Assembly: GCA_017499595.2 (NCBI GenBank)
Contig: CM039003.1
Span: 1,240,001-1,304,000, forward strand
Direction: 5' to 3'
DNA from: Psilocybe cubensis
Lineage: Eukaryota
DNA length: 64,000 nucleotides
Shown: positions 2 to 21,189 of the stretch, in pieces
Layout: each line of letters starts with the position of its first letter
Numbering within the stretch: the stretch's first letter is position 1
The notes under the pieces: generated by a model
What the model was told of the DNA's origin: nothing
The model's database searches: none
What the model saw: the letters and a program-made list of their open reading frames with translations, nothing else
Translations under genes and position numbers: made by a program

Positions 2-2410
2 CGACAGCATAGATATTTCATCAATAAAGATATACTTGACACCCTTTAATCGAGCTCGTACGTCATTTATTACTGCGACTTCGTTTTTTGAAAAGTCTTG
101 ACCACGATCCGACTTGGACCGTATTCCTAATACACTGTGATAAGTAGATCCGTTGAGGAGTGCAGCAGCGGTACCTGTGGGTGCGAGAACCACAAATCGG
201 TGAGATTCGCCTCTCGACTCAAACATATGAATGATAGATTTGATCACTTGACTTTTGCCAGTACCGCCCATGCCACCGAGATGCATCCTCAGCTGACCAG
301 GCGACAGCAAACTAGCGTGATTGGCAACAATACGGAAAGCCCTTTCCTGTTCCGTATTCAAGGTGAAATCGGCGACTGTAGAATCTACTAACACATTATG
401 TTCCATTTGCTTTGCCTTGTACGACCTGAGCAGATAATCCGAAGAAACTACTTTGACGTCATTAGTAGACTCTTCGTTGGAAATATGAATGTTTGTTATA
501 TCATCTGAGGGATCTGAAGGCACGTAACCGGACAACTTCTGTTTAAACAGTCTAATTTTTTCAGCTTTTATTAGAGATGCCCAGCTCGTATGCGTCTTGT
601 ATTCAGCAGGCCTGAACATGCTGACTTCTTGACATGTAACATCGCTAGAGGCGTTAGAAAACAATCCTGCAGATTGTATGATGCCATCTACTTCTCGCTT
701 TAACAACACCTCTCTGCGGTATGCCTCACCAATCTCTTCATAATCTAAATGATCTTCACCGAATTCAAGGCCGACAAAGTCGTTGTATTGATCGTCGAGA
801 CCGCAACCATCAGGATAGAGTTCATCCGTGTAAACATCTTGTTGTTCTCCGTCTTTCCTTCTTAACTGTGCGTGAAAATCGTCTCTGTCGTCTAAACATT
901 CATATCGCAGATTAAAGTTATCCATTAGTTTCAACTGTCGGTCGGAAAAAGCGTAAATGGTGAATGCATGTTCCCAAGTCTGATGCAATGATTTCAAATC
1001 TAACCCAGACCTCCAAGGTTTGAACAAGGTCAGCATACTGCAACAATAATACTCTCTGTCGCCTTTGTCGCGCCGTGGAAGGGGACCGCCTAGAAAATTG
1101 GGGACAATATTGTGCGCTCGGGATGAGTCACATTTGACTACGTGAGTGGAATAAAGAGGGTGCTCCTCAGTGAAACGTTCAAAACTTCTTTTGTTTATTT
1201 TAATATTTTTTCGCACACCGTCATATTTAACACGTTGATCAGAATCATCATCTGCAGGTATACCAAGACATGCATCAATGAAATCTTCCATCCCCCCGCC
1301 TTCACGTATGTCGGACGCATGATCATCTTCGAAGGTGAGTGTTTCACTACGCAAACGCTCCATTTCATTTTTAGTGAGCTTACGGCGCTCATAAGATCTA
1401 ATCCAGTCGAATAGAGACATGTCTTCTTGAGTGACTGGGCGGTATTTATAATCATCTACATTACTAGAACCTACATAATGACCGTCATGTCGAGCTAATA
1501 TAACTTTCTGTTCTTCATCTTCAGCATTTTCTAGATCCTCTACGGTAGGTAGGTGGGCGGCTTGGTCATCAGTGATACCGGATTTATGACTGCTCCTTGC
1601 GTCACTTACAAAACTTCTCCACCAAAAAGGTACAAAGGTATGATCAGTGTAATGATCAGGGTTGCCCAATAAATACAAGGAGGCCATCGGAGAACCTATC
1701 TCCATCTTAGAAGACAGAGAGTTGACAATTTTAAGCATCAACCTTCTGCCTGCGTCTTTACCTTCAATCTTGACATCGTCTTTAACTTTTTTTTCTTCAC
1801 GTTCAAACACGTCATACATAGAGGTAAATATCTGATACGTTTTCAATGCGGGTTTGCTAATATAGTCTGATATATAATATATTATTGCTTTTATCGAAGT
1901 ACCCGACAACAGACATGTCACGTCGGTATTACTTCTTGTGAGGTACGACAGCGGAAGAGTAAAGGTATTTAACATCGCTTCCAACTTTTTCAAAAATATG
2001 TGACCGTCGACGTGATCGACTTGAGACTGTTCGTACAGCCTTCGCGGAAATCGTGCTTTACAATTTCCATTCCAATCCAGGCAACCTTTCGGGCCCTTAG
2101 GCATATTTTTTATACCTTTTGATCCGTCAGGGTCATCAATTTGCTGACCGTATGAAACAGTGCATCTGTGCACATTGGACTTCAATATGATATCATCGAC
2201 TGTAGTTTCGTAATTGTCCCACCATTCAGCATTAGAAATGCATGATGTGCAGTGGTCCGGACCATTGGAATCTTGACAAGCATGTTCTACCGGTATAGGG
2301 AGTGTTAGAGTCGGATCTGCGTAACTGGAATTTACAGCCTCGTCATCCTCTTGTATAATTGAATGAAGTCCATCAATTTCTTTGTCGTAAATATGTGGCA
2401 CGCGAGTCTT
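2..2410 (-). CDS. Helitron RepHel, C-terminal part (Rep motif III + PIF1 helicase), in the +1 frame and running off the window
   Basis: Manual translation gives YADPTLTLP, GCLDWNGNCKARFPR, NTDVTCLLSGTSIKAIIYYISDYISK (catalytic Tyr motif), Walker A GGMGGTGKS, LAPTGTAAALLNGSTYHS and Walker B FIDEISM. The frame at 2410 and at position 4 is the same, and the ORF track lists no stop-terminated ORF in it. Confidence 0.92.
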
Positions 2411-5400
2411 TAACAGTCTGCATGTTTCCTGTAAGAAATTCGCCTTGATGACAGCCTTCCAAATATGATAGAAGGCTCGCCTGAAATGCAGAGTCGTTGT
2501 TCATAATACGGTCACGGATTTGCTGTGGAGACAAGCAATTCTCAATCCATAGTAACATATGCAAATGTAAGGTGAGTCTTCCCTGCTGTTCTACCGTACC
2601 ATAGTACGCTGAAGTTTTACCATACAAACCTCGATGAATATTGGATCCGACGCCTAGCACGTGTTTAATAAACAATTCAATTATGAGATGAAAAAAACGG
2701 GCAGCCGATACGGGATTCTGTGCAACCAGTCTATTCCTTTCAGAAGAAGGTAATATGTCTGGTGTAAAGGTCAGCTGTTCTTTGGCATAATATATTGATA
2801 TAGGATGTCTGTTATCGGCAGGTGACAAGGTTATAAACCATATTGGGCAACCTTTGAAAGAAAGCAAAGACCATATCTCATTGCGCATATACTTTTTAGA
2901 CGTGATTGACCCTTTAACATATCCTCCAACGTGGTCAAGATCATCTAAAAGTTTGTAACAGTCTTTCTCACTGTCTGTTTCAGGTGATACATGGTCCCCA
3001 TTTACAAGACGAGAGGAAATGTCTTGAAGAACCGTTTTGTCTATAGAGAGCAATCTTTTAGATATCGCATCAAAATTACGGCGTTTTGCAACAAGAAAGC
3101 TACCAGTAACGCCACCTTTCAGTTGCTCGTGATTGAATGCAATAATAGGAAAATAAAGGTCGCGCTGGAAACGCTTATCATGGTGCATAAGCAGTATTCG
3201 CTTATGTTCTGACTCTGAAAGTTTACGCTTATGACAATGCTGACCTATTCCACCATAACCGTAAGGAAATAGCCAAGGGAACATCTGCGGATAGGCCTGA
3301 GGATTATCGTACATAGACTGCGGTTTTGGATCATGCCCAATAGCTAGCATTTTGCCTTCATTTTCTATGTGTTGCAAGGCTTTTGCCTTCAAAGCTTGTA
3401 TGGACATATTGCCATAGTCTGTTCCACTCAAGCCATGGACAGTAAACGGACAAGGTCCGTCTACAGTTCCTTCATCTTCGCCTTCGTCGTGTAGACTCAT
3501 TGTAGACTCCATACGATTAGTACCGTTGCGCTGTCTGTAGTCTACAGCTACGGGGACACCTATCAGCGGGTAAGACTGGAGATTTTTCTTGGATATTTCA
3601 AGATCAATATAATCCTTATGGTTAAGTTTCAACCATTCCAGAGCATCTGCGACCTTATTGCGACGCACTAGCATTGGACTACGCTTGAACTCTTCTTCCG
3701 TGGGTTGGGTTGGTCCTGTAAATATAAAGGCAAGTACCTCGTCAAGTTCTGGCTTTGAAGGAGGTAATTCATGATACACTTTCAGCGTTGGATTAGAGTA
3801 CATGATGACATTTGCTGTCATTTTAGCCCGCCCAGAGGAAACTCTGACCAGACAGCGATTATGCCGAATGCGAGCAATCATCATGCGCTCTGCAAACGAA
3901 AGATCTTGCAGCTGAGAAGGTATTTTACCTAACCACAAATGATTTGCAAGCGAATGTCTCGGCACATGACCTTTTTTCAACGCAGCAGAGCAAGTATCGC
4001 ATACATGGTTACATGCAGGATCGATCACAGGGCCCGGGATGTCCTTCACCGGGTCGTCAGGATGTAATCTCTCTACACGGGTAGCTCCCTCAACTGCGAG
4101 TATGTCAAGGGGATGATCAAACATAGACAAGTGAGTTAAATTATGCAAAGGCTGCAGCAGACCGCAGACCATGCAGCCTGCTTCCTCCAGTAGAGATGCA
4201 GATGAATCAGCGCAAAATCCATTGATGATTTCCTCTATCAGAAGCTTTGACGGTGGTTGTGGCGGAAACACATGGTCGTTTGAAGTGTGGTCAGAGTCTG
4301 ATGTGGATACAAAAGCATCACCGTTGAGCATGTCAACATCGGAATTAGCAGATTCTGCGCCTGCCTGCCTCTGACGTTCTCGAGATGCTCGTTTATGTAG
4401 AACATTTTGGTTACGATTATGCATGATTGACTCTTCTGAATTGACTGTACTAGGTATTGCCTCAAAGATATATAAATGAGTGGAACATATACCACATTCA
4501 TGACCATCTGTTAATTTTATCAGAGCAGATTTTTTGGTCTTGGAATTAAATGATGTAATACCGTGTTCTTTCAGTACATCCCGAAGCTCGCTTGAAGTGA
4601 GCCATTTGGTTGCACTTTGTATAGAAAATCGACAAAGAACTAGACGGCGTTTGTGGGGTGCGGACGCTTCGGCAGAGAGAAATGACTCTAAATCACGTAT
4701 GTACGGCATATACCTAACGAACTTGTATGTATCACTATAATTAAACGATGCTGTGCCACTATAGGGTACAATATGACTTTCTATTAAAGCAGATGAAACG
4801 AAGCGAGAAAAATTTACAGCACTGTCTGTAAGTTCAAACTGCCGATCTGGATTACAAGAAGATGAATTGCTCTTAATTTTTCTATCTGACACTGATACCA
4901 CACGTTCAAAAATACAGACATTACGAAGGCAAGTTCCGCACACATGATCACGCAAAAGTTCAATGGCATTGCCTCTATTTGTGGTTGAATTGATGCCGTA
5001 CACTCCATGTAAACTTGCAATAGACCTAATTTCAGAAACAGACAGCCAACTAGCAGTGTCAAAGAGAGAGAACCTAGCAACTATTAAATCAGATATATTG
5101 TCAATGGAAGTTGAAATGTGAGCGTCTGTAGCAAGGTACTTCACAAATCTGTATTTAGTTTTAGCTTGAACGGAGGCACATCCCGTATCTTGTACCACAC
5201 GGTATCGCAAAATCTCTGAGCTGACAACCTTTGAAACACCGCCACCTCCGCCTTGCAAGACATCGGAAGGATGATAGTATGAGCATTCAGAAACATTAGC
5301 AGTAAATGAGATGTAGTGGAAATAGTTGAGACCGAATAACCAGGAACACTGAAACGGATACATTAGAACGCCCTTCGATACTATATTAATGAAGGGATAT

Positions 5401-5981
5401 TTCTCTGACCAAAGACGAGGTTGCGTGTAATGTCTGTCGAGCGTGAATTGATGCAAGGCGCATCTTGGCAAAATGGCTACCAGGCACCTATTATATTCCC
5501 ACTTCCTGAGATGATTACGTTGGAGCAACAGAGATACTAAAATAGAAACTCTACGTGTATACGTTGCAGGCGTGAATCTTAACCACAAATAAGCCGACAT
5601 TGAATGACAATCAATATATATGAAGCGGCGAAATTGCGAGTGCAACAAACGCACATTTCCATACGAGTGGGACTGTTTGACGGGTATCTCAGAAGCGGAC
5701 GTAGTAGTACGATTCAAGCAATGCATAACATGAACTAATACTACAGTAAGACGCACTCTACAAACTTTGTGCCCACTTGATACGCTGCTAGATCTAGTAC
5801 ATGTACGACTACGCAATAGATTATTGCCAGGAAATCGAACATCGTAGGTTGGAAATTCCCCACAGGGTAAGCAAAAGTCTATTGACCAATTATTTGTTTT
5901 AAACAACTGTTGATTGACAGCTATACAACTACTAAGCATCGATATTGTTCGAGAATCACCAGCATAATTGGATGCGTTCAA
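2373..5981 (-). CDS. Helitron RepHel, N-terminal part (Cys/His motifs, DUF6570-like region, Rep motifs I and II); true start codon uncertain
   Basis: 1202-aa intronless ORF with LSFAERMMIARIR, YPQMFPWLFPYGYGG, motif I WFITLSPAD and HUH motif YGTVEQQGRLTLHLHMLLWI. It stops prematurely at 2373. Confidence 0.9.
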   Translation of the reverse strand: MNASNYAGDSRTISMLSSCIAVNQQLFKTNNWSIDFCLPCGEFPTYDVRFPGNNLLRSRTCTRSSSVSSGHKVCRVRLTVVLVHVMHCLNRTTTSASEIPVKQSHSYGNVRLLHSQFRRFIYIDCHSMSAYLWLRFTPATYTRRVSILVSLLLQRNHLRKWEYNRCLVAILPRCALHQFTLDRHYTQPRLWSEKYPFINIVSKGVLMYPFQCSWLFGLNYFHYISFTANVSECSYYHPSDVLQGGGGGVSKVVSSEILRYRVVQDTGCASVQAKTKYRFVKYLATDAHISTSIDNISDLIVARFSLFDTASWLSVSEIRSIASLHGVYGINSTTNRGNAIELLRDHVCGTCLRNVCIFERVVSVSDRKIKSNSSSCNPDRQFELTDSAVNFSRFVSSALIESHIVPYSGTASFNYSDTYKFVRYMPYIRDLESFLSAEASAPHKRRLVLCRFSIQSATKWLTSSELRDVLKEHGITSFNSKTKKSALIKLTDGHECGICSTHLYIFEAIPSTVNSEESIMHNRNQNVLHKRASRERQRQAGAESANSDVDMLNGDAFVSTSDSDHTSNDHVFPPQPPSKLLIEEIINGFCADSSASLLEEAGCMVCGLLQPLHNLTHLSMFDHPLDILAVEGATRVERLHPDDPVKDIPGPVIDPACNHVCDTCSAALKKGHVPRHSLANHLWLGKIPSQLQDLSFAERMMIARIRHNRCLVRVSSGRAKMTANVIMYSNPTLKVYHELPPSKPELDEVLAFIFTGPTQPTEEEFKRSPMLVRRNKVADALEWLKLNHKDYIDLEISKKNLQSYPLIGVPVAVDYRQRNGTNRMESTMSLHDEGEDEGTVDGPCPFTVHGLSGTDYGNMSIQALKAKALQHIENEGKMLAIGHDPKPQSMYDNPQAYPQMFPWLFPYGYGGIGQHCHKRKLSESEHKRILLMHHDKRFQRDLYFPIIAFNHEQLKGGVTGSFLVAKRRNFDAISKRLLSIDKTVLQDISSRLVNGDHVSPETDSEKDCYKLLDDLDHVGGYVKGSITSKKYMRNEIWSLLSFKGCPIWFITLSPADNRHPISIYYAKEQLTFTPDILPSSERNRLVAQNPVSAARFFHLIIELFIKHVLGVGSNIHRGLYGKTSAYYGTVEQQGRLTLHLHMLLWIENCLSPQQIRDRIMNNDSAFQASLLSYLEGCHQGEFLTGNMQTVKDSRATYLRQRN

Positions 5982-6672
5982 GGAGTGTACATTAATGCAA
6001 CATTGTATGTGGCCACATAGGATTCCTACAAAATAGCGACAAATGTCAGATCATACACAGTACACATAAGGAGAAGATAACTCACCCCAACCAGAAACTA
6101 AAATAAAAAGAGCGTAGAAATGAAGTGATGCGGCGAGCATATATAAAAGAGTAATGTAAGTTTCAAGGTAAATAGATATGTTCACTAGTCTGATGGATAT
6201 GAGTGTGAGATCGATCAAGGGGGGGGGGGAGGAATGTGTAGGAATAATTAAAGGAATCGCATCGAGGACCCTCGATTTATATAAGTAGACACTGACAACA
6301 GGTAACACCGGGTAACTCTGTGTAGCGTACGATTATTGACAACGGGCGCTTAAATTTTGGCAGAGGGGACACGCAAAGGAAAAGCATATGTCCAACTGTA
6401 ATGCCATGATAATATGTATGTATTATTATATCGGGAGAAATTTGTACGGAAGACAAGTAGAATATGATACGAAGCAGTTGATAAGACAGAATACTAACTG
6501 GATATTCAAAGATACAGGAAGCAGAGTACAAATGACACGAAGAAAGAACAAAAACATTGAAGTAATAGACTACGCGACGTATATGATACCAAAAAATAAC
6601 AACAGATAGCAAGGAGAATGTAAATAATACCATAACTATGTGTATTAAAAGACATTAGGTTTAATGAAATAT

Positions 6673-9600
6673 TCAGTCTTCATCAAAACCTGCAAAGGAC
6701 TCCTGTTCTGCCTCTATGTCGCTGGTATCGTGTTCCGTACCGAACACAACGGCATACTGTATGTTGGTACACAGATGAAATGACCGTTCCTTCTCGTATT
6801 GAGTCATAGTGTACGCCACCATAACAAAGGAGTTAGGTGGAATCTCTCCGCGACGCCATCTAGGTAGCAATTCGTCTAACCGGTCGAGGTCAGTGTTGAA
6901 ATTGAAGGCATGGTTACGTGAATCATATATGGGAACTAATATATGACATTGTCAGTGGTTTGAAGCACATACAATGTTGATAACTTACTAGTGTCGGTTG
7001 AATCCATCATGGTCTTGAACCTGGTGCTTGATTTAAGTGCTTTTCGGCTTCCTCCTTGGAGTTTGGCATCTTTCTGTCCAGAAAGTATGCCGGGTGTCCT
7101 AGGAGGTTTTGAAGGAGAGATTGATTCCCGCTCCGCTATTTGAGTGAGTGTCTGAGTGAGTACAAAAAGAAAAAAAAAAAAAAGTAAGCATATGTGCCCA
7201 CTGACATTTAACTCCCATAGTGCCAAAGGTGATTGCCTTATCACGGATAGAGGCTACCATAACCTGATGTCCGAACGCCATGCAAGCAAATCCAGCGAAG
7301 CGTTCCCACTCCTGGTGCATCATGTGACCAGACAAAAATTTGTTACACAGTCCTTTGGATATCGGCTCCAATAGATACGAATCGCGGGTGAGAATTGCAC
7401 TCAGGCAGATAGCAGGCACCGAGTTGCACTGCAAAGTGGCACGCTTACGATCGTTTCCCATATACAGGATGCTGACGTCCAGAGGCGAAACCCGCGAAGG
7501 ATTGATAAAGTTCTTGTTCCTTACAAAAGTCACAGCGTCATAAGCGTTTCTATATAACATAGTAGAGAGAGTAAGCAATACGCATCATTAAGTAAAGTAT
7601 AGCAAAGGCTTTACGAAACTCACTCAAAATTCATCTCAGGGAAATTCTCACCGCAGAGAGAAAAAGAAACACAGTCGACTGGTGCCATGACATTAGGCGA
7701 GTTCCATTGCTTGAGAATACCATGCCTTGAAATAGTCAAAACAAAACATCGATTATCTTAGAAGGTAAAAACTTACTGAAGATTGGGAAGGTCAACGTAA
7801 GTGCTTTCTAAAAGACTATCTTGTAAATCTGTCTTCGTAACTTCGCATTTCTTCGGCAGATGTCTTAAGGTCAGACACAAATCAAGTCAGACAACAGATT
7901 GAAGATGACATATGGGTACGTTAACTTACTTGACCGAGAAGCGCATGGTATCCTCCATCAGAGCCGGCCCGTTCAATCCAAGACTGGGAGTTTTGTTCAC
8001 AGGACCGGCAGGCACAACATCCTTGAACTTGCGGGGAACTCGAACTGGAGTGACAGGTGTAGGGGGAGCTTCAACAGCGGCATTGATTGGAACAGCTGTC
8101 AAAGAAGATTGAAACTGCACTTGTCGAGTTTTTGGCTGTTCAGAAAGACTGGCCATAACCACATCAGAATGCGCGTCGATAGATTTGGCACTGTTGAATA
8201 AAGGTAGATAAAGACGATCACATATATTGGCATGACGGATATTTACCTTATTACAGACGCCTTAAATTGAACAGGGGGGTCCAAAGTCGAATGTTCGGTT
8301 TTAAGAGCATCTGCTTCACTGTACTTTTCATACGCATCATCGAGCGCTTTGAGCAACTTGCTAGAGGAAGGACCGCTGGGGAGAGCATTGGAAGATGGAT
8401 AAGTGGTCTGATGCATTCGACTCTCTCTGACCGCGTGCCTGATCAAACCCGATTAAGAAGTGATAAAAGAAAAACACCACAAATGAACATTACTGACGCA
8501 AACATCATAGCTTCATCTTCGTGAAGATCGATTGGACCGCTGGGAAGAACAATGCGAATGGATTTGCCTTTTCCTGGAATTCTGTAAATCAAGTTAAGTG
8601 ATGCTCACGTAGACTTTTAGAGCATACACATACTTGGTGCCCAAAATGACTTCAGGTGACGGCAAGAAGGGGTTGATATCAGAATCAGCATCACCCTGCA
8701 AAGTAATGGGTGGAGACAAAACAGCAGATCCAGAAATTTCAGACCCAATCTTCAGCGGAGACACCGACAGACTAAGAGCAGGACGTCAGTCAATCGCAAT
8801 GTGGAATAAAAGAGAACGGTACTCGCTCGATCGCAGCTTCCGAACGCCGAGCGGATCTACGAATCCCAACAGAGCCCTTCTTTGAAACGGATGATTTTCC
8901 TTTGTCTTTCTTTGTGGGGGTGGACGCAACGTTATCCGGTGCAAGAGGGATATGAACATCGACAGACTCTTTCTTAACCATAACTTCAGAGGGCAATACG
9001 GACGTGGGACGAGCAGATGCTTCTTGCTTTATGACAATGCCAGGCTCTTGTTTGATACGGACCGTTTGGGGCATTGTCTTCTGTGGCTTCTTGCCTTTCT
9101 GTTTATTCGGTTTTGCTCTGACAGGAGCACGAATTGTAATACGCGGATGTGAGAACGTATGACATAATAACATAAAAGATGTAAATGATAAACATACCCG
9201 CTGGTAGGATGAACAGAGACCATTTCATCCGCGGATGAATCATCGACTAATATGGCATCACTAATACCCTTCTGATATCGGGCGTTGGCTCTGTTCAGAG
9301 TATCCAACGGTATTAAGCAGAACGAAATAATGGCGAGATTTGATACAAGCAGTAAAACTTACGAATTATCGACGACTCGAATGACTTCGACCGAAGAATC
9401 ACTCGAGTAAGATACGTGATTGACAGTCGCATCAACGTTCGCGCTGACGGATGTACGACTCTTCTTCGGAGGGGAAATTCGGGCTCTGAGGTAAATATAT
9501 AACAAAACCAAAATATCAGCATAACATAAGGGTTATCAGATTGCAATTTCACTAACGGCAACTCCTCATCGGAACAAACGAGCGCAGCATCTTCGATATC

Positions 9601-10140
9601 GCGTTTCCTATAACGACAATAAAGTAGTCAAAACAAAAGAAAAAAAGTGCGGAATGTGCAGCTAAAATCATACAAGCCACTTGTTGACCTGGTCTTCCTA
9701 ACAAAATTGTCCAACGCATCTGATCCGCTGCAATACAGAGATAAGAAAACGGAAGGAACGCATGTAAACGACGTGCGTGATTGAAGACACAGGGTAAGAT
9801 AGTATGGGATACACGTACGCAACAGTCTTGTTCCCCGGTTTGACGACCTTTGCGGCAGCAATGCGAGAGGCGACGCTGTCTAACGGTCCGTCATCAGAGT
9901 CAGTGGCAACAGAAAAAGAATCTTCTTTGTTGTCGGGTTTGACGTGGATTATGACGTTGCGAATGCCTTTTGCAGGACGATGTCTGTTACAACGCACAAC
10001 GTTTAAAATCATAAACTGTACATAGAATAACATGGAACGGCTTACTTGTATTCAGCAGAGGGCGAGCGATCACCAGCAACCACATCGGCATATGTAGGCT
10101 TGGGAGAAGCAGGAGCATAAGCAGAGTTGATGGAAACCAT
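6673..10140 (-). CDS. 16-exon hypothetical protein (829 aa): long disordered N-terminus, globular C-terminal domain with an acidic tail; probable Helitron accessory gene
   Basis: Exons 10140-10046, 9983-9819, 9727-9674, 9607-9557, 9485-9363, 9290-9198, 9117-8827, 8771-8634, 8581-8498, 8438-8247, 8190-7930, 7863-7777, 7725-7624, 7549-7206, 7135-6989 and 6935-6673 splice (14 GT-AG, 1 GC-AG) into an open 2490-nt CDS. Confidence 0.8.
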
Positions 10141-11158
10141 AATGTGATTGAAACGATAAAGAGACTTAGGAATACTGTAGATGATAGAGCTCGAGGCAGG
10201 TAGAGCGTCGAAGATGGAAAGCACTAAACAAAAAAAAACCAAGGTTTTATAGAAAAGGTTATGAGACAGCATCACAAGAATTCAACATGATAAATACTAC
10301 TTGGAGAAACATGAAAAACAGAGAAAAAGGATAATAAAATCCATGAGTTGATACGGAGTAGAAAAATGCAAAGACTAACGCTCGGTACGATAGAAAGCGA
10401 TGAGTGGAAACGCCTTTAGCGAATACCATACACACTCCCGAAGCCACTGAGACAAGCAAGTCAGCACGAATAAGATATTACGCGTGATGAGCGTACCAAG
10501 AGCAAACACCATTGTACAGGAGCGATTGCCTTAAGGGATTAAAGACGCCAAAAAAAATGATGGACCAAAATTTGATGTAAAAAAAAAGCCGACAGATGAT
10601 GGTCGCACTACGCATAAAAACACGAAAAAGGTGAACTAGGCGAAGCGACACGTTGATGAGCAAAGGCAAAGAGCAAGCAAAGCAAGAGGAGCTCCATGAA
10701 ACGAGAAAAGTAGGCACTCGGTACACCAAATCAAGTTAAAGAACAAATGCAATTTAATGAAGCGCGTCATATGAGGAGACGACAACACCATAGATGAACA
10801 ACCGACCTAATGCCGCGGTCGAGAACAGGAACACCAGGGAAGAGGAACATATGAGAGCGAAGTAGACAGGGTCAAAACGGCGCCGATAGCGAATAAGCAA
10901 GGAGGAAAAATATATGAAAATTTTACAAAATGATCGGTGGTAACAACAACCGGAGAGGAGACAAAACATTAACAACCAGTACGAACCAAGCACGACGATG
11001 AGAACGGAACAGTAGCAGATTTCGGACAGAAACGGAAAGATTACACAAGAGGGACACACGAATACGAGTCGGAAAGCGAGAAACATCATAAAACCAAACG
11101 GTCAAACAAGGCCAAAAAAAAAAAAAAGTGAAACAGAATCCCACCCTCAACCAATTGC

Positions 11159-12289
11159 ATGGACCCAAACTATAACCAATACGCTGCGCAGGCCCTCATG
11201 GACCAAGGGTACTGCGACGCCCGAAAATCGATACACGATGCTATGCCGGTGGTAGACTTTCAGGTATTTTACATATTCATATGGATGGACGAACATACTG
11301 ACGATTCCAAAAACACGATTGACAGCTCGAAGATCATAGAGTGGTCTACGTAGAACAACCTCGCTCGTGGAGAATTACACGAACGAATTCCACTGAAGAA
11401 CAAAACTTCTACGTGTACGGCGCAATATGCAGAAACGAATTGCCGCCTATTAAATTAAGGTAAATGATATAACTATATATACAAAATGCATACCCAACTG
11501 ACCCAATCGTAGTGACGCAACACCGTCTATGAAGAAGAAAGCGATATATCTTCGACAGGGAGTTAGAATTACCGGACTGCGGAGCAACGGATTCAACGAC
11601 GATGCGGTTAGTATAAAGCATGTACACGAGATGATGAAGACATACCTCAAAAAGGAAGACATAGAGGTAAAGCCGTGGAACTTAAGCATGTACGAAGGTC
11701 ATTGGGCGGTCGACGCAAGTACGCGTTACTTCACACCTAGAAAGCATGCGCCGACAGAAGCAGGACTGGCGTTCGATATGGGTGTAGATCCAGACGGCGT
11801 GTTGGCGCACATGAGAGGAGACGATCTCATACACACCATGGACAACAAGGTCGACTATTTGCGAGAAGTCAAAAACGATAACGGTACAAGGTGAGCTTTG
11901 TGGTACATCTCATACACAGCGGCATACTAACAGTATCCGATCAATGACTCAGCACATCGCGTGTGGTTCCCAGCGTGTTCAAAGTTGGAGACATAGTCCG
12001 AGCGACCATAGCATTCATAGGAGTGATGCACAAAGACAAAGCTGTCGCGATGACCACAGTTCTGAGAGCGCTTACGCTCATACATGATGTGGTTAGTGAG
12101 GCAAGCATGTTCAGGGAAAATGAATAACACTGACCTCACAAACAGCAAGACGTACGAAATGGCCCAGCAGAGTTCATAGAGAATGACGCAGAAATCGCGA
12201 AGATACCCGTCATGAAGCGCCGTCGAGTGTATGACGAAGATAGAGAAGTAAGACAAAAGATGGAGGACATGACCATACACAGAGAATAG
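11159..12289 (+). CDS. 5-exon hypothetical protein (299 aa); probable Helitron accessory gene
   Basis: Exons 11159-11263, 11326-11459, 11513-11890, 11953-12091 and 12146-12289 with GT-AG introns and CTRAC branch points give an open 900-nt CDS (…FYVYGAICRNELPP…DPDGVL…HTMDNKVDY…FKVGDIVRATIAF…VLRALTLIHD…). Confidence 0.82.
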
Positions 12290-14489
12290 AAGAGAAATGA
12301 ATATCTTATATTAAAAACATTAGTTGTTAGTATATAACTGCACATTACGCTGACAGAAAGACATAAACAGTTGAAAGACTACATGGCTATCAGGATGGAA
12401 TCTTCACATCAACATCATTTAGAGCGCGATAAAGCAGATAAAGCAGTAGACATATCCACGAGAAATAGACGGCCTAACAGAGACGCATATTGAGGCAGCT
12501 TATGCACAATAAGTACAGACAAGTACATAAAAATATGGTACTGTAGCGAAAACAAAGGAAAGGAATCAAATATAACGACAACGCGCACAGACGGCAACTA
12601 ACATAGAGGATGAGGAAGAGAGAGAGAAAAGGGGAAACAGTCTCACGGTGCGGCATAAACGAGCAGCTCGCGAAAAAATTTCGGCAATAAGCGAATGAAC
12701 AAAAGATCAGAATACATAAGCAGAACATTCATTTTGGGAAATAAATTCCCGCGGAAACGCATACCTGACATTGGCCACCTGAGAAAGGCCTGGGAAAAAG
12801 AACGAGTCTATACTCCGTATAGGACTCGTAACACCGAAAATATCATGTTTACTTGGCTGCTAGTAACGTAACGCCGACTTGAAGCGAAGCGCGCATAGCA
12901 CACAAGTAAGTAAGCAGATCACTCATGATCAGTTGATGAGACTTATTTGCCTCATGAGCCTGTGTAAATTCAATTTGTATACGAAAAAACAATTATTGCA
13001 GTGCAAACTGGAAGGAAAATCAAAGGAAAATCTGAACACCTCCGAGTCGGTTAAGCTGGGCCCTACTCAAGCGCGCTCGGCCCTTATAAATCTTCAAATG
13101 ATTGTTCAAAACTCGGTTTATTTAAATTTTATAGAGTCGACATGTAGCGTAGCCAGGACCAGGACTGCCGCCGGGGTCCGCCGCTCTCAGCGGCGCGTTG
13201 AATCAGACGCAAACAACAGAATATTCTGCGGGAAGGTTAACGCGTATTTTGATTGGGTACACCCAGTAGTGGGACTGGGAAGTGGGGTCGGAGATCACGG
13301 TATGTTCGGGAGAGACTTCAAACCAATCATCGAATGAGAATACAAATAATGCGTTGACAGGTTAACAGCCAATTCCTGAACATCATGAACCATGAGTTAT
13401 CATTGGATAGTCGGCTATTATCCAGCGGGGTGGTAGGCAGGTACATGGCCAATAGTGGTCTCCCCTTCAGCTGAAAATGTTTACTTATTGGATTACCTTA
13501 AATTACCCCGAGGGGAATTCAAGACGATTCCATAACATAACATAACGTACACCTAAGTTACACGCGCAGGATAACGAAAGTTCCTTAACCCATGTTCTGA
13601 TCATGATCACAATTATGATCATAATTAACCCTCTTTGACCCTCAGAAAAGCTTGAGTGCGGTGGGAACCCGTTGAGCGGTTCAGCCCTGCTCAGCCGGAA
13701 CCAGGCGCGCTGTCCGGTGTCACCCCTTCGCCATTTGGTCTACGCGATTTCGGAACACGGAGGGTACGTCCGAGGCTCAGGGCTGGTTTTATGTACGACT
13801 GCCGTATACGAGCTGGGAGAGTATTATAATATACTGTTAATACGCGTTTTTTGTGATGCATATGAGGGTTGGAGGTTTGGATTGAAGGTTAGATTTTGAG
13901 CGCCGAATGGGGGAGTGATTTACATAAATTCAACCTTAATAGCACCCTTCATGATCATTTCTTTTAGATTTACATCTGTTAGTATCTAGTGCATGGAATA
14001 AAGAATAATGGAAGCACTGACCATGATTGAATTTTCCTGAGTCTGCGAGCTTTCACTGACAATCAACTTGAATAAAAGCCTGGCTTGTGATGACTACTAT
14101 GCCAGGGATCCGAGTCGGACGTTCCGTTTCCGACGTCTTGCACGAAGTTGAAGCGTGAAGTGCATCCGTTCTATAGTATCTATCATCAATATTTACCGTT
14201 TACTTGGAGCCCCCGTCGAAGCGAAGCGCATGCATCATAATACTACGCTCATGATTTCATCCATGACGATGACGAACTATCCAATATCGAAATAGAATCA
14301 TTCCAGATTATGTTGATATGATATGATATGATATTATTAACAACTCAACATGAACAGACGCTGGGGCTGTAGGCTGCAGGCTCCATTATGATAGGACTCC
14401 ATCATCATGTGTTCGGAATTCAGAATACAAAAATCAGAATTGAGAACCAAATTAACAATAACTAGTACGAGCTTTAGAAGTCCTTCCAT

Positions 14490-14630
14490 GCATCTACCAT
14501 CTACCATCTACCATCGACCATCGACCACCTAACAGTACTAGTAAGTAAGTAGCAATCAGTAGCACCAGTAACAAGCACTAATACTAATACCAATACCAAT
14601 ACCAATACCAATACTAATAGCAGCAGCACA
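14490..14630. repeat. Compound microsatellite cluster (CATCTAC, ACCATCG, ATACCA/ATACTA, AGC units)
   Basis: Directly visible short tandem repeats. Confidence 0.8.
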
Positions 14631-15881
14631 TTACTTTAGTTCAAGTATCTGTATACCCGACCCAAATCTAACATTCTAATAATACAAATTGAAAAAGTGC
14701 GATTTACCCGGGCATTCAAGAATCGAAGTTAGCGTCGTGTATGGATTCCGTTGACGGTTGCGGGGTCTTTGGCTGGAGCCCTGGGTAAGTTCTAAGTTCT
14801 AAGGCAGGTGCGACTCCGAGGTATATATAGACGGGGCTTCTTTGATGCATATGACAGCAGTGTGCTACTTTTAGAACATGGAAAATAGTAATAATATAGA
14901 GCAGCCCGCGTTCAAGTTCTGCTCAGGCTGAGTTTGGGTTTAGCTGACTGACTGCCAGATTACTAAATTACTAGAGCACTAAAATACTGGTTGGTCTAGT
15001 GATGCGCTGTAGAATATGTTGGGTATTGAGGTATGCGCCGCCTTCAACAATTTCAAGTTCAAGTTCAAGCAAGTACGAGTTCAAATTCTTTTTTTACTTT
15101 CTTTCCTTTCTTATCTTTCCAACGTTTGGGGATAACATGAGACACCATTTGGTCCACTCAAATACAGATACAGACACAGGCGCAGACGCAGACGCAGAGA
15201 GACCTGGAACCAGAACCGTCTGGGCAGCCAGTGGTAGCTGACCTACATCACTACTAGTATTATGAAAATGTTAATTCTGGGCTGGGTTTCTGGCGGTACG
15301 CTGGCATAGTACGCACGGTACGAATGGCGTTTTAATTTTAATTTTTAATTTTTAATTTTGTGTGGGTGCGTATTTCATTTGTTCGAGACTTCGAGACGCT
15401 CGTGATCAGAGGCTTACTGGCACTTTCTTTCTTTCTTTCTTATTACTTGATTACTTCCTTGCTCTGAAAATGCAGTTCTAATTTCATGGCCGGATATCAC
15501 GCTATCACGTCTCTTCTGTACCTACTACCCTACTACCACTACTCCCACCACACGCCATACCATACCACGCAGAGCCCGCAGACACAGAGCCTGTACCTGT
15601 ACTAGAGTTAAAAATGAATGCTGACTATTTTTATCCACACTGACACTCATCTATTATTATCAATTCTCATAGAACCTACCTAGACCTAGACCCCATGGCC
15701 ATTGTCATTTACAATGTTACATACATACATACTTCAATACTTACTACATACAAACTAACTTCTTCCATGTTGTCTGTCCTGTCGCTGTTTGTATGGTTTA
15801 TATGGTTCATGGAGTGTAATGGGGGTATCTCAGTAGTTGCGCGTGGGTTTTGTTATGCCAGCGTACGCCGTATGTACAGTA

Positions 15882-16695
15882 CTATCTACTATCGGTACTT
15901 GAAATTGAAGTATTAACGTTGAAGCCGTCGTCGTCGTCGTCGTCGTCGGGGAGCAATGTGATTGTTCTCAGCTCTGCACTGCTCAGCTGTGGCGACGACG
16001 GGACGGTGGTGCCTTTACGACCCGTTCGAATTTGAAGGAATTTCATACCTGCATACTTATATTATAATTAGGGGTCATCGTGGTAATGGATATAATGGAC
16101 GTGAGATGCACGAGGCCGATGCGCGATGTGCGAGGTGTAAATTCATATTCATATTCATATTATAATAATCATAATCCGCCGAGTCGTCGCTCAGAGCTTC
16201 AGACTGCAGGCTGAGGTAGAGGTAGGGGTAAGGGTACCTAACACTTTTCTTGTCTTGTCTTGTCTTGTCTTGATAGAGATAGAGATAGAGACAGGGGTAG
16301 TATGTGACTGTGCACTTACTTATCACAAGCGCCAGCACTGCAGTCCGTCCGAGTACCTGCATATAAATGAGCACCACAAAGGCACTAGCCCATTGATGGT
16401 CCCCCAAGGCCCAGTCCCACGCACGCGAGAAAACATTGTCCATGTCAGTGCGTTTGCGTTTGTGGTTTAGGCGCGCCATCCTGTAGGCTCTGCGTAAGGC
16501 CTAAGTGATAGCCGCCGTGAGCGTGGCCTGTATACTTGAACTTGTCTTAGACTTAGCCTTAGCCTTCGCGTGGGCGTGGGTGTGCGAGCGCGTTGCGGAT
16601 GAAAGTTTGACAAGTAAACAGAGCTCAGAGGGAGACGGCCCGATGTACGGTACAGTATACGAGAGAGTAAACGACTTGCGAGTCGTGGACGGCAC
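15882..16695 (-). pseudogene. Small or degenerate membrane-protein-like gene fragment
   Basis: ORFs 16501-16695 and 16075-16479 share a frame across a single TAG. A hydrophobic segment (WASAFVVLIYMQVLGRTAVLALVI) ends at a GTAAGT donor (16319) that splices in frame to exon 16048-15882. Confidence 0.3.
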
Positions 16696-17519
16696 AGCTT
16701 GGCGTTGATGTTGAATCCGTTGAATCGCTGATGTGCATTGGCGATGATGATGTTAATGATGATGATGATGATAGACTTAATGCGCCCGGAGCGAATCTGC
16801 AACTGCATACTGCACGCACCGTTGGCGTTGCCTGCCAACTTTGAGACTAAATTACAGCACGCAAAGCAGGTCAACTCTCGAGCGAGCGGAGATGGCAGAA
16901 GAGACGTGGACGTGATAAATGGCGGTTGGCAAGAAGAGTGAAAGGCGAATTAGTTGCGGTATACTGGATTCTCCTGCCAGTGCAATGGTGGAGGTAGTAT
17001 ACCTATACCTATCTTTACACAGTGCGGCGGCGGGAGTGAAACGCCGAGTCGCTCGCAATAAGATTAAGACTCAGAGCCAGGGCAGGATTGAGGGAAGCTC
17101 GAGGCTCAAGGGTTAGCGCAGGCAAAAAGGATTTTTGCAGACGTTGAAATGAAATGAAATGAAGTGCCAAAGCTAAAAACGTGTTGTGAATGGAGGGAGA
17201 GCGTTGTTAAGGAATTGACGATAAGGAAATATTTGGGAGGAAGATTGATGGGATGTGGAGTTGACAGGAGAGATGTATCGGGGTGGATTGGGAAAGGACA
17301 GGCAGAGACCTTGACGAGATTTTCATTGATGATGTGATATTTAAGCTTTAAAGCGATTCACAGGGAAAAAGAAAAGGGAAAAGCAAAGAGGGGAGCCGAA
17401 AAAGGCTAGCTCGCTTCGGTCTTCGCTTCAATCCAACCTCTTATTATGACCCTGCCTTGGCTTCTCCTTCCTCTTTTTTTGGCCTTCCCTCTCCCGCCAT
17501 ATCCCTCCCCCCGCCATCC

Positions 17520-20074
17520 ATGTCCTCCAGGATTCACAAAAAGTTTATACATACCCAGCCAAAGACCTACAAACTCACCCTCAACGCCGTTCTCTCCTTT
17601 CCTGTCCGTATCTCCTCCCCCTTTCCAGTGCCTGTCCTCACTTTCACTTCCAGTTCCGTATCTGCAATCCGCCCCCGGCTGTGGGCAAGGTCAGATCATG
17701 CAGCGGTGAGCACCGACCGTTCTCATCGCGTTGCGTTTGCTTATCGTTCCCAGTGACCCCCCTGCTACGGGTGCGCCTCGAAGATGTGTTGGACAGGAAA
17801 CATCTGCCCCCGCTCGGTCAGTTTGATCTTTATCTCGCGTCTTCATATCCACTAAACGCTGCTCTCCAGGCCTCAAGGACTTTGAGGTAACGCTAAGCGA
17901 TACATAGAATGAATGACGCACGAGTTAATAAAACACAATTACTAGGAATGGCTTCTTTTCGTCGAATTGAGCCCGGAAAATCTGTGCGTTCATTAACCCA
18001 TCTCACCTTGCTTGGCCCATGTGCTCATCATCGCCAAAGCTACTTCATCCTCTGGCTGCGCGAGTACAAGCAGCGGTACAACCAATGGAAAGCCCAGTCC
18101 GCGTTCCAAAGCAGAAACGCGCCGACGGACGACTGGTCGCAGCAGCACTCCTCCCACCTCGCCATGTTCTACACCCGCGCCAAGCAGACCTTCCTCACCC
18201 CAGGCTCCGAATACGAGCTCAACCTCACCTCCAACCTCCTCGCCCCTTTCCACACCCCGAACCCCTCCTCCCCGCACCCGGACCCCGCCCTCTTCCTCGA
18301 CGTCGAGCTCGAGACCTTCCGCACCCTCGAAGAGAGCCTCCGCCGCTTCGTCAACGCCCAGCTCAACAACGTCGGCAACAGCCGCGTCCTCTGCGGCATC
18401 ATCGCAGGCATCGTCTTCTCCCTCGCAGGCGCCGTCCCGCCCCTCGTCGTCAACTTCACCCGCGGACACTCGCGCTGGTCGCGTCTCACCGCCGTCCCGG
18501 GCCTCTGGCTCGGTCTCACCATCGTCCTGGCCGCATTGCACGGTGTGTGTCTGGCGGTGTACATCTTTGGCGATCTCCGCCAGCTGCGCAAGTTTGAGCT
18601 CGCGCGCCCGCCGATCTCGAAGCCGAAGCCGCTGCCCGCGTTCAAACCCAACTCGTTCATCCCCGCCACGCGCCCGCTATCCTTTGCCGACCCCTCGACG
18701 CTGCCTATGCAGCAGCGGCCGGGGACAGGAACGACACCTGGCGTGGTCGTTCCGACGCCGATTACAGACATCCCGCACCCGATCGTGGGGACGCAGACGA
18801 GCAACATTGCTAGCGCGCAGGGCCACACGCGGTCGCGTGTGACGTCGACGACATCGACGCGCGTGAGCGAGGAGAGCGCGCGGACGGAGTCGACGGACGA
18901 CCGGATCCACATCTCGCCCGCGTACTACGACGAGGAAGACGACGACGACAACGACGAGTGTCTGTACTACTCCGCGCCCGAGGAGAAGGGCGGTGCGTCC
19001 GCGACAACGGCGGGGGCGGCGGGTGCTGCCGCTATTACACCGGACAATGGTGGGTTGAAGGAGGGGGCGTTCAGCGCGACGGCTGCGTTTATCCGCCCGT
19101 TTGAGCCGATGACGGATGATGAGTATGAGTTGGACAGGTCGCTTGCGATGCCTGCGAAGCATCAGGTTATGACCTCGTTCAACTTTGACGCGCTCCCTAG
19201 CAGACCTTACTTTCCCGACTCTGACGACGACGACGACATCCATACCCACCCCCACACACGCAGCGCAACCAGCTCCAGCACCACCAACACAATCCCAACT
19301 CCAATACCATCACCATCATCACCCGCAGCAGCAGCACTACCCCCCTCACTCTCGCACTCCCGCCCGCCCCTCCCCCACATCAACACCTTCCTCCCACCCC
19401 AGCACACCCACATCGCAATTTCATGCCCCCCAGAACCAGCCGCATCCCCCAGCTTCATCGCGCGCATCCAGGAGCGGTGTAATATACCCAAGTGGCGCTT
19501 GCAGACGGGGTATTTGGAGCCGAGTTCGCCTGCTAGTGTGAGTAGTTCTAGTCGGTGGACTAGTAGAGGCGCAGGGAGGGGTATGGGGGCAGGGAGGGGG
19601 ACGGGGACGGGGACAGGGGGAAGCCCGCTGCCGCACTCGAGCAGCCCTTTTTGGACGCAGACGCATCATAGAGCGAATGCGTATTCGACGTCGTCCATGT
19701 CCATGTCGATGTCTGCGTCCATGTCCATGTCGTTACCTTCTCCCTCCCCACTCGTGCCTAAATCCGAGTCTGACTTGGATCCCACCGACGAAAAACTAAC
19801 ACGCAAATCCAAATCCAAATCCAAAAGCAAAGAGAAAGGGAAAGGAAAATCCAGAGGCCCAGAAAAAGAATCCAAAGTACACCGCCGCTTCCGACTCATG
19901 AACGCCGTGCCGGCGTTCGCGGTCCCGCTGACGCGCGTGCTGAGCCCGGTTATTGTGCGTGGGCAGTGGGAGATTGTGGTGAGGTCGGCGGTGGTGGCGT
20001 TTGTGGTTGCGTGGGTGCTTGTGGGGAGTTTGTTGGCTGTGCCGCCGGTTGGTGGGGGGAGGGGTGGGACGTAG
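17520..20074 (+). CDS. RGS-domain membrane protein (Rax1-like fungal family)
   Basis: Spliced N-terminus MSSRIHKK…FRICNPPPAVGKVRSC…RLEDVLDRKHLPPLGLKDFEEWLLFVELSPENLYFILWL (RGS signature), followed by two TM segments, a long low-complexity loop and a C-terminal TM helix. Confidence 0.8.
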
Positions 20075-21189
20075 GGTGTGTGGGGGTGGAGGAAGAGGTT
20101 GAAGGTTTGAAATTTGAAGCTTTGAAGAGGAAGTGGTGGTGGTGGTTGAAGAGGAGGAGGAGGGAGGAGGAGGAGGAAAGAGCGAAGTTATGCTGATAAT
20201 TGATTTGCGTTATACGTTATACGTTAACGTTTCACTATTAATTGGTGAAACGTACGCACGGTCGGCGTCGACCATCGTTCTTGGAATAGCGTCTCTTCAG
20301 GTCGCACGAAACACACCCCCGGCCCCCCGCTCTGTCAAGAAGTTCTAAAAATAGGATGGCTTTTCGTCCTTTGGCCTAACCGCCCGCCCGCCCGCCCGTC
20401 TGGCATAAGGGGTCTCTCTGGTCACCTCACCCTCACTTGCGACACTGTCTCTCTTTTCTTTGTTTTTCTTTCTATGCATGCATGCTTGTTTCTCTCATTT
20501 TCCAGTATTCACTTTTTTCATTTTTTTTGGCTTCTGACGTGCTCAATTTTTTCTCTTTCTTTCTCGGTCGCTGTATCAACAACATCAACAACAATCTGGT
20601 TCTGAATCTGAAGTTTGAATTTGAACTCTCACCACACTGCACTGTATCAATTTTCAATTTTTTTTCTCCTCCTTGTCCTCCTCCTTCCTCCTCCTCCTTC
20701 CTCCTCCTCCTCCGACGATGGCTCTTTTCTCTTATTTTATTCTCTTTATCGTTTCTTGGTCCTTGAATTTTTTTTTGTACTACATACACCCTCCTCTTTC
20801 TCTTTCTCCTCCTCCCTCCCTCTTACCACTCCTCATCATACCCCCGCCCGCCCCCACCACCACATCGTTATCGTTATCGTTATTCGTATGAACAACCTTT
20901 GACTCGACTCGACTCTGAAGACGACACCCATCCACCCCCATCCATCCACACACACATACACACACACAGAGAGAGACACAGACAGTCATACCCACACCAC
21001 AACTCTACGAGTACGAACGCAATATGACCGTGCATACCCAGCCTCTGCCCCTGCCCGTGCGGCGTGTGGAGTGTCGTTTTATATCCTTGATATCCGTTTG
21101 CGTTTGCGTTTCCGTCTCGTCTCGTCTTCGCACTGCATGGTGCACCCCTATCTTTGTCCATAACCCCTATCTCTATCTCTATCCTCGAC

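Follow-up and report, generated by a model that had tools for sequence, protein, structure and literature searches.

A run of thirteen phase-2 introns in a probable Helitron companion gene of Psilocybe cubensis

Why should thirteen successive introns of a single fungal gene all interrupt the reading frame after the second base of a codon? The gene in question occupies positions 10140 to 6673 on the minus strand of a 64,000-nucleotide stretch of the Psilocybe cubensis genome (assembly GCA_017499595.2, contig CM039003.1, positions 1,240,001 to 1,304,000; hereafter, the window), and it lies 0.6 kb upstream of, and on the same strand as, the coding region of a Helitron transposase (RepHel). The run of phase-2 introns is far beyond chance and, as regards the sequence, the public annotation and partial conservation, it is real. 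We give an even chance to a joint reading in which the gene is a companion gene of a Helitron of the HLE2 type, its product of 829-832 amino acids (aa) has a fold of the single-stranded DNA-binding protein (SSB) type, and the phase-2 run is of historical rather than regulatory origin.

The gene model given in a first-pass annotation could be rebuilt exactly, with 16 exons between an ATG at 10140 and a stop codon ending at 6673, and with a coding sequence of 2490 nt (829 codons plus the stop) that contains zero internal stops. Behind exon 1 (10046-10140, 95 nt), each of the exons 2-13 starts at an AG acceptor and ends at a donor of GT or GC type, and all are multiples of 3: exon 2 (9819-9983, 165 nt), exon 3 (9674-9727, 54 nt), exon 4 (9557-9607, 51 nt), exon 5 (9363-9485, 123 nt), exon 6 (9198-9290, 93 nt), exon 7 (8827-9117, 291 nt), exon 8 (8634-8771, 138 nt), exon 9 (8498-8581, 84 nt), exon 10 (8247-8438, 192 nt), exon 11 (7930-8190, 261 nt), exon 12 (7777-7863, 87 nt) and exon 13 (7624-7725, 102 nt). 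They are followed by exons 14 (7206-7549, 344 nt), 15 (6989-7135, 147 nt) and 16 (6673-6935, 263 nt including the stop). Phase 2 applies to every one of introns 1-13 and phase 1 to the two that follow, precisely as had been claimed. All 15 introns are short (51-91 nt), with a G at donor position +5 in 12 of the 13 phase-2 introns and YAG acceptors in 13 of the 15.

Does the open frame itself impose this uniformity? For each of introns 1-13, we counted the other GT/GC..AG pairs that would preserve the frame and found between 10 and 149 alternatives; pairs of a phase other than 2 were available at every one of these introns, and all three phases at 11 of the 13, so phase 2 is not imposed by the open frame. 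When the pairs were scored with a crude consensus count of our own, the top-scoring pair was phase 2 for every one of the 13 introns, the pair of the rebuilt model ranking first in seven, second in three, third in two and fifth in one. The probability of 13 phase-2 introns is (1/3)^13 = 6.3e-7 at one third per intron, matching the earlier estimate of about 6e-7, and falls to 1.5e-8 at p = 0.25. If exon 3 is missing, the phase-2 introns number 12 and not 13, and the corresponding values are 1.9e-6 and 6e-8. For a basidiomycete amylase gene, the accessible part of a published account describes 64 gained intron positions with phases not different from 1:1:1 (PMC3584928).

Independent predictions reproduce most of the model. 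Eight distinct public protein models cover the gene and its near-identical P. cubensis copies, and one of them, P0155 (832 aa), equals the rebuilt model apart from a 9-nt downstream shift of the intron 7 donor, so that the run of one-phase introns separated by exons of 3n length is found both in silico and in a public model (12 or 13 introns). The shifted donor (GTTCTC), used in 8 of 8 public models, is a GT site and leaves intron 7 in phase 2, as does the GC donor (GCGAGT, at 8826) of the rebuilt exon 7. A third variant of intron 7, with GT-AG borders in phase 0 (donor GTACCG, acceptor 22 nt downstream), was rejected; it deletes LSVSPLK, the start of exon 8, which aligns, together with the DPF motif of that exon, with the Flammula alnicola relative P0006. 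Exon 2 is present in all eight models. Two models (P0002 and P0154) carry 38 extra residues upstream, an extension that we disfavour because the motif following the ATG at 10140 (KPTYADV in exon 1) recurs as KPTYAxV in distant relatives, again close to the N-terminus (P0008, P0014 and P0128). The extension concerns 10141-10260, and nowhere in the window can its first residues, MVFALVASGV, be read in that order. Support for the donor of intron 14 comes from a P. cyanescens-like fragment, P0011, which reads into this intron precisely at the rebuilt donor, and exon 13 is found in the P. cyanescens protein P0004.

Comparison with copies and with other species, to which the first-pass annotation had pointed, was favourable in one respect and unfavourable in another. 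The sole related locus found in metagenomes, L001, is 41% identical, and four of its introns coincide in position with introns 12-15 of the P. cubensis gene, in phases 2, 2, 1 and 1; its equivalents of exons 13 and 15 measure 96 and 141 nt, the former flanked likewise by phase-2 introns. Because introns 12 and 13 are kept, with their phase, at this distance, they are old. The public models of the P. cubensis copies, on the other side, differ at exon 3 (dropped in 7 of 8 and retained by P0155, hence an uncertain exon), at exon 13 (dropped in 3 of 8) and at intron 14 (a phase-0 alternative in 7 of 8), and 2 of 8 retain the last intron. These conflicts count against the uniform run, as does the requirement of the rebuilt exon 7 for a GC donor. 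RNA contigs of X2 and X3, which bear the same species label, place nothing on 6200-12827 except an 18-nt chance piece and are uninformative on expression.

The same observations bear on whether the run is a modelling artefact, produced on a transposon gene that is silent or in decay and whose real transcripts would use other sites. The junctions are predicted, the eight public models disagree among themselves, one donor is GC, and L001 (positions 1-1100) is broken by an in-frame stop and a frameshift within its exon-14 equivalent (352 vs 344 nt), being either a decayed copy or a sequence with errors. Nevertheless, a frame of 2490 nt stays open across 16 pieces, the +5 G is present in all but one of the phase-2 donors, the best-scoring alternatives are without exception phase 2, and four intron positions and their phases persist at 41% identity. 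The 846-aa relative P0008 comes from a 2803-nt Logan contig that leaves no room for introns and, judging from this length against that of the protein, is probably an mRNA. Taken together, we consider a modelling artefact quite unlikely.

If the run is real, how could it have arisen? One conceivable source is a burst of introner-like elements inserting in a single phase, a possibility to which the uniformly short introns lend some colour. The 15 introns, however, share only splice signals and T-rich runs when compared with one another by blastn (best match 14 nt at E 1e-4, alignments no longer than 7-17 nt), and introns 12 and 13 are old. The lack of intron similarity excludes a recent introner burst; an ancient burst may lie further back. 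As an explanation of the run, introners of any age seem to us barely credible. Similarity between the exon peptides was equally unrevealing, with nothing convincing among 78 pairs (best z 4.6, score 30), so that recent exon duplication is not visible; this leaves the growth of the gene by whole exons, which we favour below, with no direct sign of origin, a point to be held against it.

Under the phase-compatibility rule, an exon arising in or landing in an intron survives only if its length is 3n, leaving two introns of the parent phase where there had been one. As a plausible mechanism, new exons would have been inserted, duplicated or exonized within a phase-2 intron of a region encoding disordered protein; each surviving exon would have to be 3n, and its flanking introns would both inherit the phase 2 of the parent. 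Since a disordered region may tolerate nearly any piece that is free of stops, repetition of this process would yield the run. We infer that the phase run most likely records the growth of the disordered region and does not serve to regulate which exons are chosen.

The first-pass annotation had named such regulation as one of two readings, in which the symmetric exons would suit combinatorial alternative splicing. Its premise holds, in that exons 2-13 are of 3n length between phase-2 introns and could be skipped in frame, and predictors indeed omit exon 3 (7 of 8 models) or exon 13 (3 of 8) without a frameshift. The step from there to regulated skipping with many isoforms found no backing: the differing public models are predictions on near-identical DNA and not transcripts, the domain would be broken by the loss of exon 13, which contributes to the conserved fold, and in Coprinopsis cinerea, according to the accessible portion of a long-read study, exon skipping makes up 0.5% of events vs 67.5% for intron retention (PMC12230235). 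We therefore regard regulated combinatorial skipping as highly improbable, and historical growth of the disordered region is the reading carried forward here.

One regularity at the exon borders is recorded as a side observation. The first full codon after a phase-2 intron encodes His (N|CAY) in 4 of 13 exons (exons 2, 10, 12 and 13, at 9983, 8438, 7863 and 7725), and exons 5, 6, 7 and 11 start with an Ala codon (N|GCM). His accounts for 18 of the 829 residues, giving a binomial P of 1.4e-4 for the exon-start His, calculated post hoc, and these residues are not kept in P. cyanescens or L001.

The predicted architecture of the protein separates the run into two parts. In the AlphaFold2 model of P0155, built from 48 aligned sequences, residues 1 to ~505 have a predicted local distance difference test score (pLDDT) below 50 and no secondary structure, in keeping with the disordered N-terminus that had been proposed, while residues 510-832 adopt a confident fold except for the loop 714-734, which corresponds to exon 15. 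Introns 1-10 thus fall in the disordered part, intron 11 at the border and introns 12-15 in the fold. Exon 10 is the last exon lying entirely within the predicted disordered region, and the end of exon 11 reaches into the conserved folded domain, the core of which (NPSR..QEWERF) is encoded by exon 14; exon 16 contributes the final strands of a fold resembling the oligonucleotide/oligosaccharide-binding (OB) type and an acidic tail.

A phmmer search with P0002 returned 443 representatives at E <= 1e-3. Among the 150 matches listed, the best stretch falls within the last ~430 residues of the query, and mostly within the last 330, except for P0001, a model from the same species, and for P0121 and P0128, which give long alignments of low identity. 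The named members that were checked all belong to the Agaricales (Psilocybe, Flammula, Candolleomyces, Coprinopsis, Ephemerocybe and Mycena), and neither P0001 and P0002 nor the exons of the P. cubensis protein that were tested have a Pfam match. Ahead of the matched domain, the N-termini of the family representatives are long and unrelated, and the length of the disordered region differs greatly among relatives. Short N-terminal motifs nevertheless recur in distant members, namely KPTYAxV at the beginning and, in exon 8, LSxSP...DPF.

These motifs also bear on the second proposal of the first-pass annotation, the accretion of exons driven by a Helitron, in which exons captured from other genes would have been added one by one to the N-terminus. 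A Helitron does adjoin the gene, and basidiomycete Helitrons are reported, in the accessible text of one study, to carry genes of unknown origin (PMC4289320). Against such capture, the N-terminal motifs stand in the same places in distant relatives, introns 12 and 13 are old, the exons match neither each other nor any Pfam family, and residues 1-600 of P0155 found no match at E <= 1e-3 among 8000 candidates when compared with shorter proteins. Fragments from unrelated genes would, moreover, be expected to bring mixed phases. We judge exon capture very unlikely. What survives of the Helitron proposal is the element itself, directly downstream, and the link would lie in the whole gene as its companion and not in the accretion of foreign exons.

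What might the folded domain do? To its structure two models gave the same answer. The AlphaFold2 model of a 331-aa relative, P0007 (pLDDT 86, predicted template modelling score 0.82), has as its first nine PDB matches T7 gp2.5, the SSB of phage Enc34, CP312R of African swine fever virus (ASFV) and two DUF2815 proteins, other OB-fold proteins ranking later; the template modelling (TM) scores normalized by target are 0.26-0.51 for these nine matches (0.43-0.51 without CP312R), with probabilities up to 1.00. The model of the P. cubensis protein yields the same first 11 PDB matches. In BFVD there are 14 matches at E <= 1e-3, to giant-virus and phage proteins, with phage proteins named as SSBs just under the cut-off, and a structure search of the Atlas returned the same families. 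The C-terminal tails of the family are rich in acidic residues, with 32% D/E (106 of 330 residues, from the 45 of 151 matches that could be scored) vs 12% in the whole proteins, and a median acidic tail of ~4 residues; the protein of the window ends in ...EAEQESFAGFDED.

Several results pull the other way. The PDB fold matches are weak, with a best E of 2.6e-3, identities of 6-13% and TM by query of at most 0.28; no SSB family of Pfam was matched at E <= 1 among 47 members scanned; and the A3 profile, run against PDB sequences, gave low-complexity matches only, at E >= 0.06 and with no SSB among them. The models are thus consistent, though weakly, with a viral SSB fold of the T7 gp2.5 type in the folded C-terminal domain of ~320 aa. 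Helitrons move via a single-stranded DNA intermediate, and by analogy the most likely role of the gene product would be to coat this intermediate of rolling-circle transposition.

The disordered arm offers a lead of its own. Of 47 relatives, 10 weakly match the HUN domain (PF08729), the matching part of their disordered arm being a YDxxDPFIDD motif; the best E is 9.9e-6, and those matches whose standing is shown fall short of the Pfam threshold. No HUN match is obtained with the P. cubensis protein (P0001 and P0002), and exon 8 contains a DSDINPF motif. On this reading, the product would comprise a disordered arm of ~505 aa bearing short linear motifs, of HUN type in relatives, joined to a domain of ~320 aa of the single-stranded DNA-binding type.

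The second half of the question concerns the neighbour. The RepHel coding region (2-6050, minus strand) consists of two long open frames, 6050..2373 and 2500..2, which run off the window and align in collinear order with fungal RepHel proteins from elsewhere (P0158 and P0131). It contains DUF6570 (E 4.3e-40), Helitron_like_N (E 2.2e-33) and PIF1 (E 9.2e-14), and so combines Helitron_like_N and PIF1 in one RepHel region with DUF6570, a reported marker of HLE2, the Helitron2/Helentron group, in which genes for RPA are also reported upstream of RepHel, as far as the accessible part of that survey goes (PMC11417382). The two frames overlap at ~2340-2420 (minus strand), where a 52-nt GT..AG stretch (GTGCCA...ACAAG), seen by eye, would join them; given that junction, the transposase may be intact but for one short intron.

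Is the gene a part of this element, or an ordinary host gene beside which a Helitron happened to insert, with its copies made by segmental duplication and its phase run an inherited quirk of the family? Gene models from two other species carry the same gene order in fused form. Among the six family matches that have at least 250 aa after the domain, two carry on into domains of RepHel, namely P0131 from Candolleomyces efflorescens and P0081 from Coprinopsis cinerea, and the order in P0131 (exon 14, exon 16, then RepHel) is collinear with the window. The remaining four of the six lack a RepHel domain, the long extensions of P0091 and P0076 having nothing in common with the RepHel of the window, and in annotations the majority of the 443 family representatives stand as genes of their own; both facts speak for a host gene, as do the 15 introns of the gene set beside the nearly intron-free RepHel.

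Copy number argues for mobility. Near-identical proteins of the gene come from at least six P. cubensis loci; six GenBank accessions, from one P. cubensis annotation, and four UniProt entries are identical save for one R/C residue and model differences. A relative in Ephemerocybe angulata is represented by at least eight accessions at 94-99.6% identity, copies in which we found no interpretable pattern of exon-sized insertions or deletions. Neither the gene nor the element recurs within the 64-kb window.

A further clue comes from the DNA of run X1, one contig of which spans 6200-12827 with 1 mismatch in 6.6 kb and stops at 12827, with loose ends at 12830 and 12831, while the flanking gene differs from X1 by about 1.6%. 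The break at 12827-12831 groups the gene and RepHel in one block and would make 12830/12831 the end of the element. This candidate 5' end (12802-12830, minus strand) has a T|T junction at 12831|12830. A 12-bp hairpin lies directly inside it, with a folding energy of -7.7 kcal/mol (z -3.5), a stability that none of 200 shuffled sequences reached. Beyond it, over 12843-16204, X1 coverage consists only of short contigs, 90-95% alike and with gaps, which suggests that older repeats flank the insertion.

Read depth favours the host gene. The X1 contig has a depth of 58.6 over 6200-12827 vs ~55 for the flanking gene (26-55 over 17004-20100), so that block and flank are alike, which is not what six collapsed copies would be expected to give; either X1 comes from a strain with a single copy, or its depth cannot be set against the at least six annotated copies. 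Other facts stand beside the depth, the extended matches that lack RepHel and the stand-alone annotations as points against a mobile unit: none of the 120 listed RepHel relatives comes from P. cubensis, the best being 71% identical, the candidate 5' end is known from one copy, and the 3' end of the element falls outside the window. Weighed against the fused gene order in two other species, the multiple near-identical loci in P. cubensis and E. angulata and the shared X1 block, an ordinary host gene appears to us rather unlikely. The gene is probably a companion of an HLE2-type Helitron, with which it would apparently form one mobile unit, copied together to several loci.

Two neighbouring features are noted for completeness. 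A 130-codon open frame without a Pfam match (11502-11894, plus strand) lies on the opposite strand, in the interval from the gene to the candidate end of the element; a feature-based search of the Atlas gave a weak lead to GCR1_C clusters (score 0.92, low recognition). Outside the candidate end lies a neighbouring gene (17484-20100, plus strand) that is GC-rich (up to 62% GC), expressed and without a Pfam match. X2 and X3 RNA contigs splice its GT..AG introns at 17604-17653, 17705-17752 and 17984-18039, and in these contigs 17818-17943 is replaced by 14 other letters and several insertions of 3-12 nt occur relative to the window, which represent strain differences.

How does this gene compare with systems already described? 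Genes with long runs of introns in one phase and exons of 3n length are familiar under the phase-compatibility rule (Patthy), as in the class 1-1 modules of animal proteins and the 54-bp exons of collagen. The P. cubensis gene resembles them in its long one-phase intron run and its 3n exons, and differs from them in that the shared phase is 2 instead of 1 or 0, its exons code for disordered sequence and not for domains, there is neither exon-to-exon similarity nor a Pfam module, and the setting is fungal and transposon-borne. An initial literature search for fungal genes with symmetric exons brought up nothing of relevance. From the HUN domain of Hpc2/ubinuclein, weakly matched in the disordered region of the relatives described above, the P. 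cubensis protein differs in having just the degenerate DSDINPF stretch left.

The T7 gp2.5 family (1JE5, the Enc34 SSB 5ODJ/K/L, ASFV CP312R and DUF2815) supplies the best structural matches of two independent models, and viral relatives turn up in BFVD and the Atlas as well; an acidic C-terminal tail may be a further common trait, although that tail is only ~4 residues long at the median in the fungal family. For the gp2.5-type families tested (PF21265 SBB_T7, PF10991 Enc34_ssDNA-bd and DUF2815), the fold corresponds whereas the sequence profiles give no match. The differences lie in the 6-13% identity, the lack of a sequence-level match and the weak E-values, in helices and strands added on the N-terminal side of the OB core, and in the context of a eukaryotic transposon.

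The RPA-like SSB genes of Helitrons, known from plants and from HLE2, offer a functional parallel. Like the P. cubensis gene, they are separate genes upstream of RepHel, as reported for HLE2 in the accessible part of PMC11417382. Their OB-type fold (predicted here for the P. cubensis protein) and presumed role on the rolling-circle intermediate are likewise shared. The P. cubensis gene differs from them in having no RPA or Ssb-like_OB Pfam match (P0001, P0002 and 47 relatives), and in its gp2.5-type fold, its 500-aa disordered N-terminus, its 15 introns and its occurrence in the Agaricales. By this comparison the gene falls outside the RPA family, yet would work like the RPA-type helpers of other Helitrons. 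The genes capA-capC of the HELPO1 Helitrons of Pleurotus ostreatus are a further parallel, likened by description and not by sequence: they too are genes of unknown function and origin in basidiomycete Helitrons, some of them expressed, but they lie downstream of RepHel, according to the accessible text of PMC4289320.

A wider proposal would extend these observations to the whole group. Tentatively, and with less confidence than we place in the reading for this locus, Helitrons of the HLE2 type in the Agaricales may carry an SSB of their own, of viral type (resembling those of T7 gp2.5 and of nucleocytoplasmic large DNA viruses, NCLDV), which would have gone unrecognised for want of a Pfam model; its long disordered arm would bear, in many members, a HUN motif resembling that of histone chaperones, and a dozen symmetric phase-2 exons would let copies gain or lose exons in frame. 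Published surveys of the extra genes of Helitrons relied on Pfam, as far as the accessible part of one such survey states (PMC11417382). In the literature searched, we found no paper pairing 'Helitron' with 'gp2.5', and papers joining gp2.5, transposon, single-stranded DNA-binding and eukaryotic included none on Helitrons.

For annotation, the locus carries a warning, in that predictors silently drop symmetric exons and have produced eight differing public models of near-identical copies. For the evolution of disordered proteins, the phase-2 run provides a clean test case of growth by whole-exon insertion into an intron. If the reading is true, a helper of the gp2.5 type that lacks a Pfam model would be a second, independent solution to the need of Helitrons to coat single-stranded DNA, and the Helitrons of fungi would be linked to the replication proteins of viruses.

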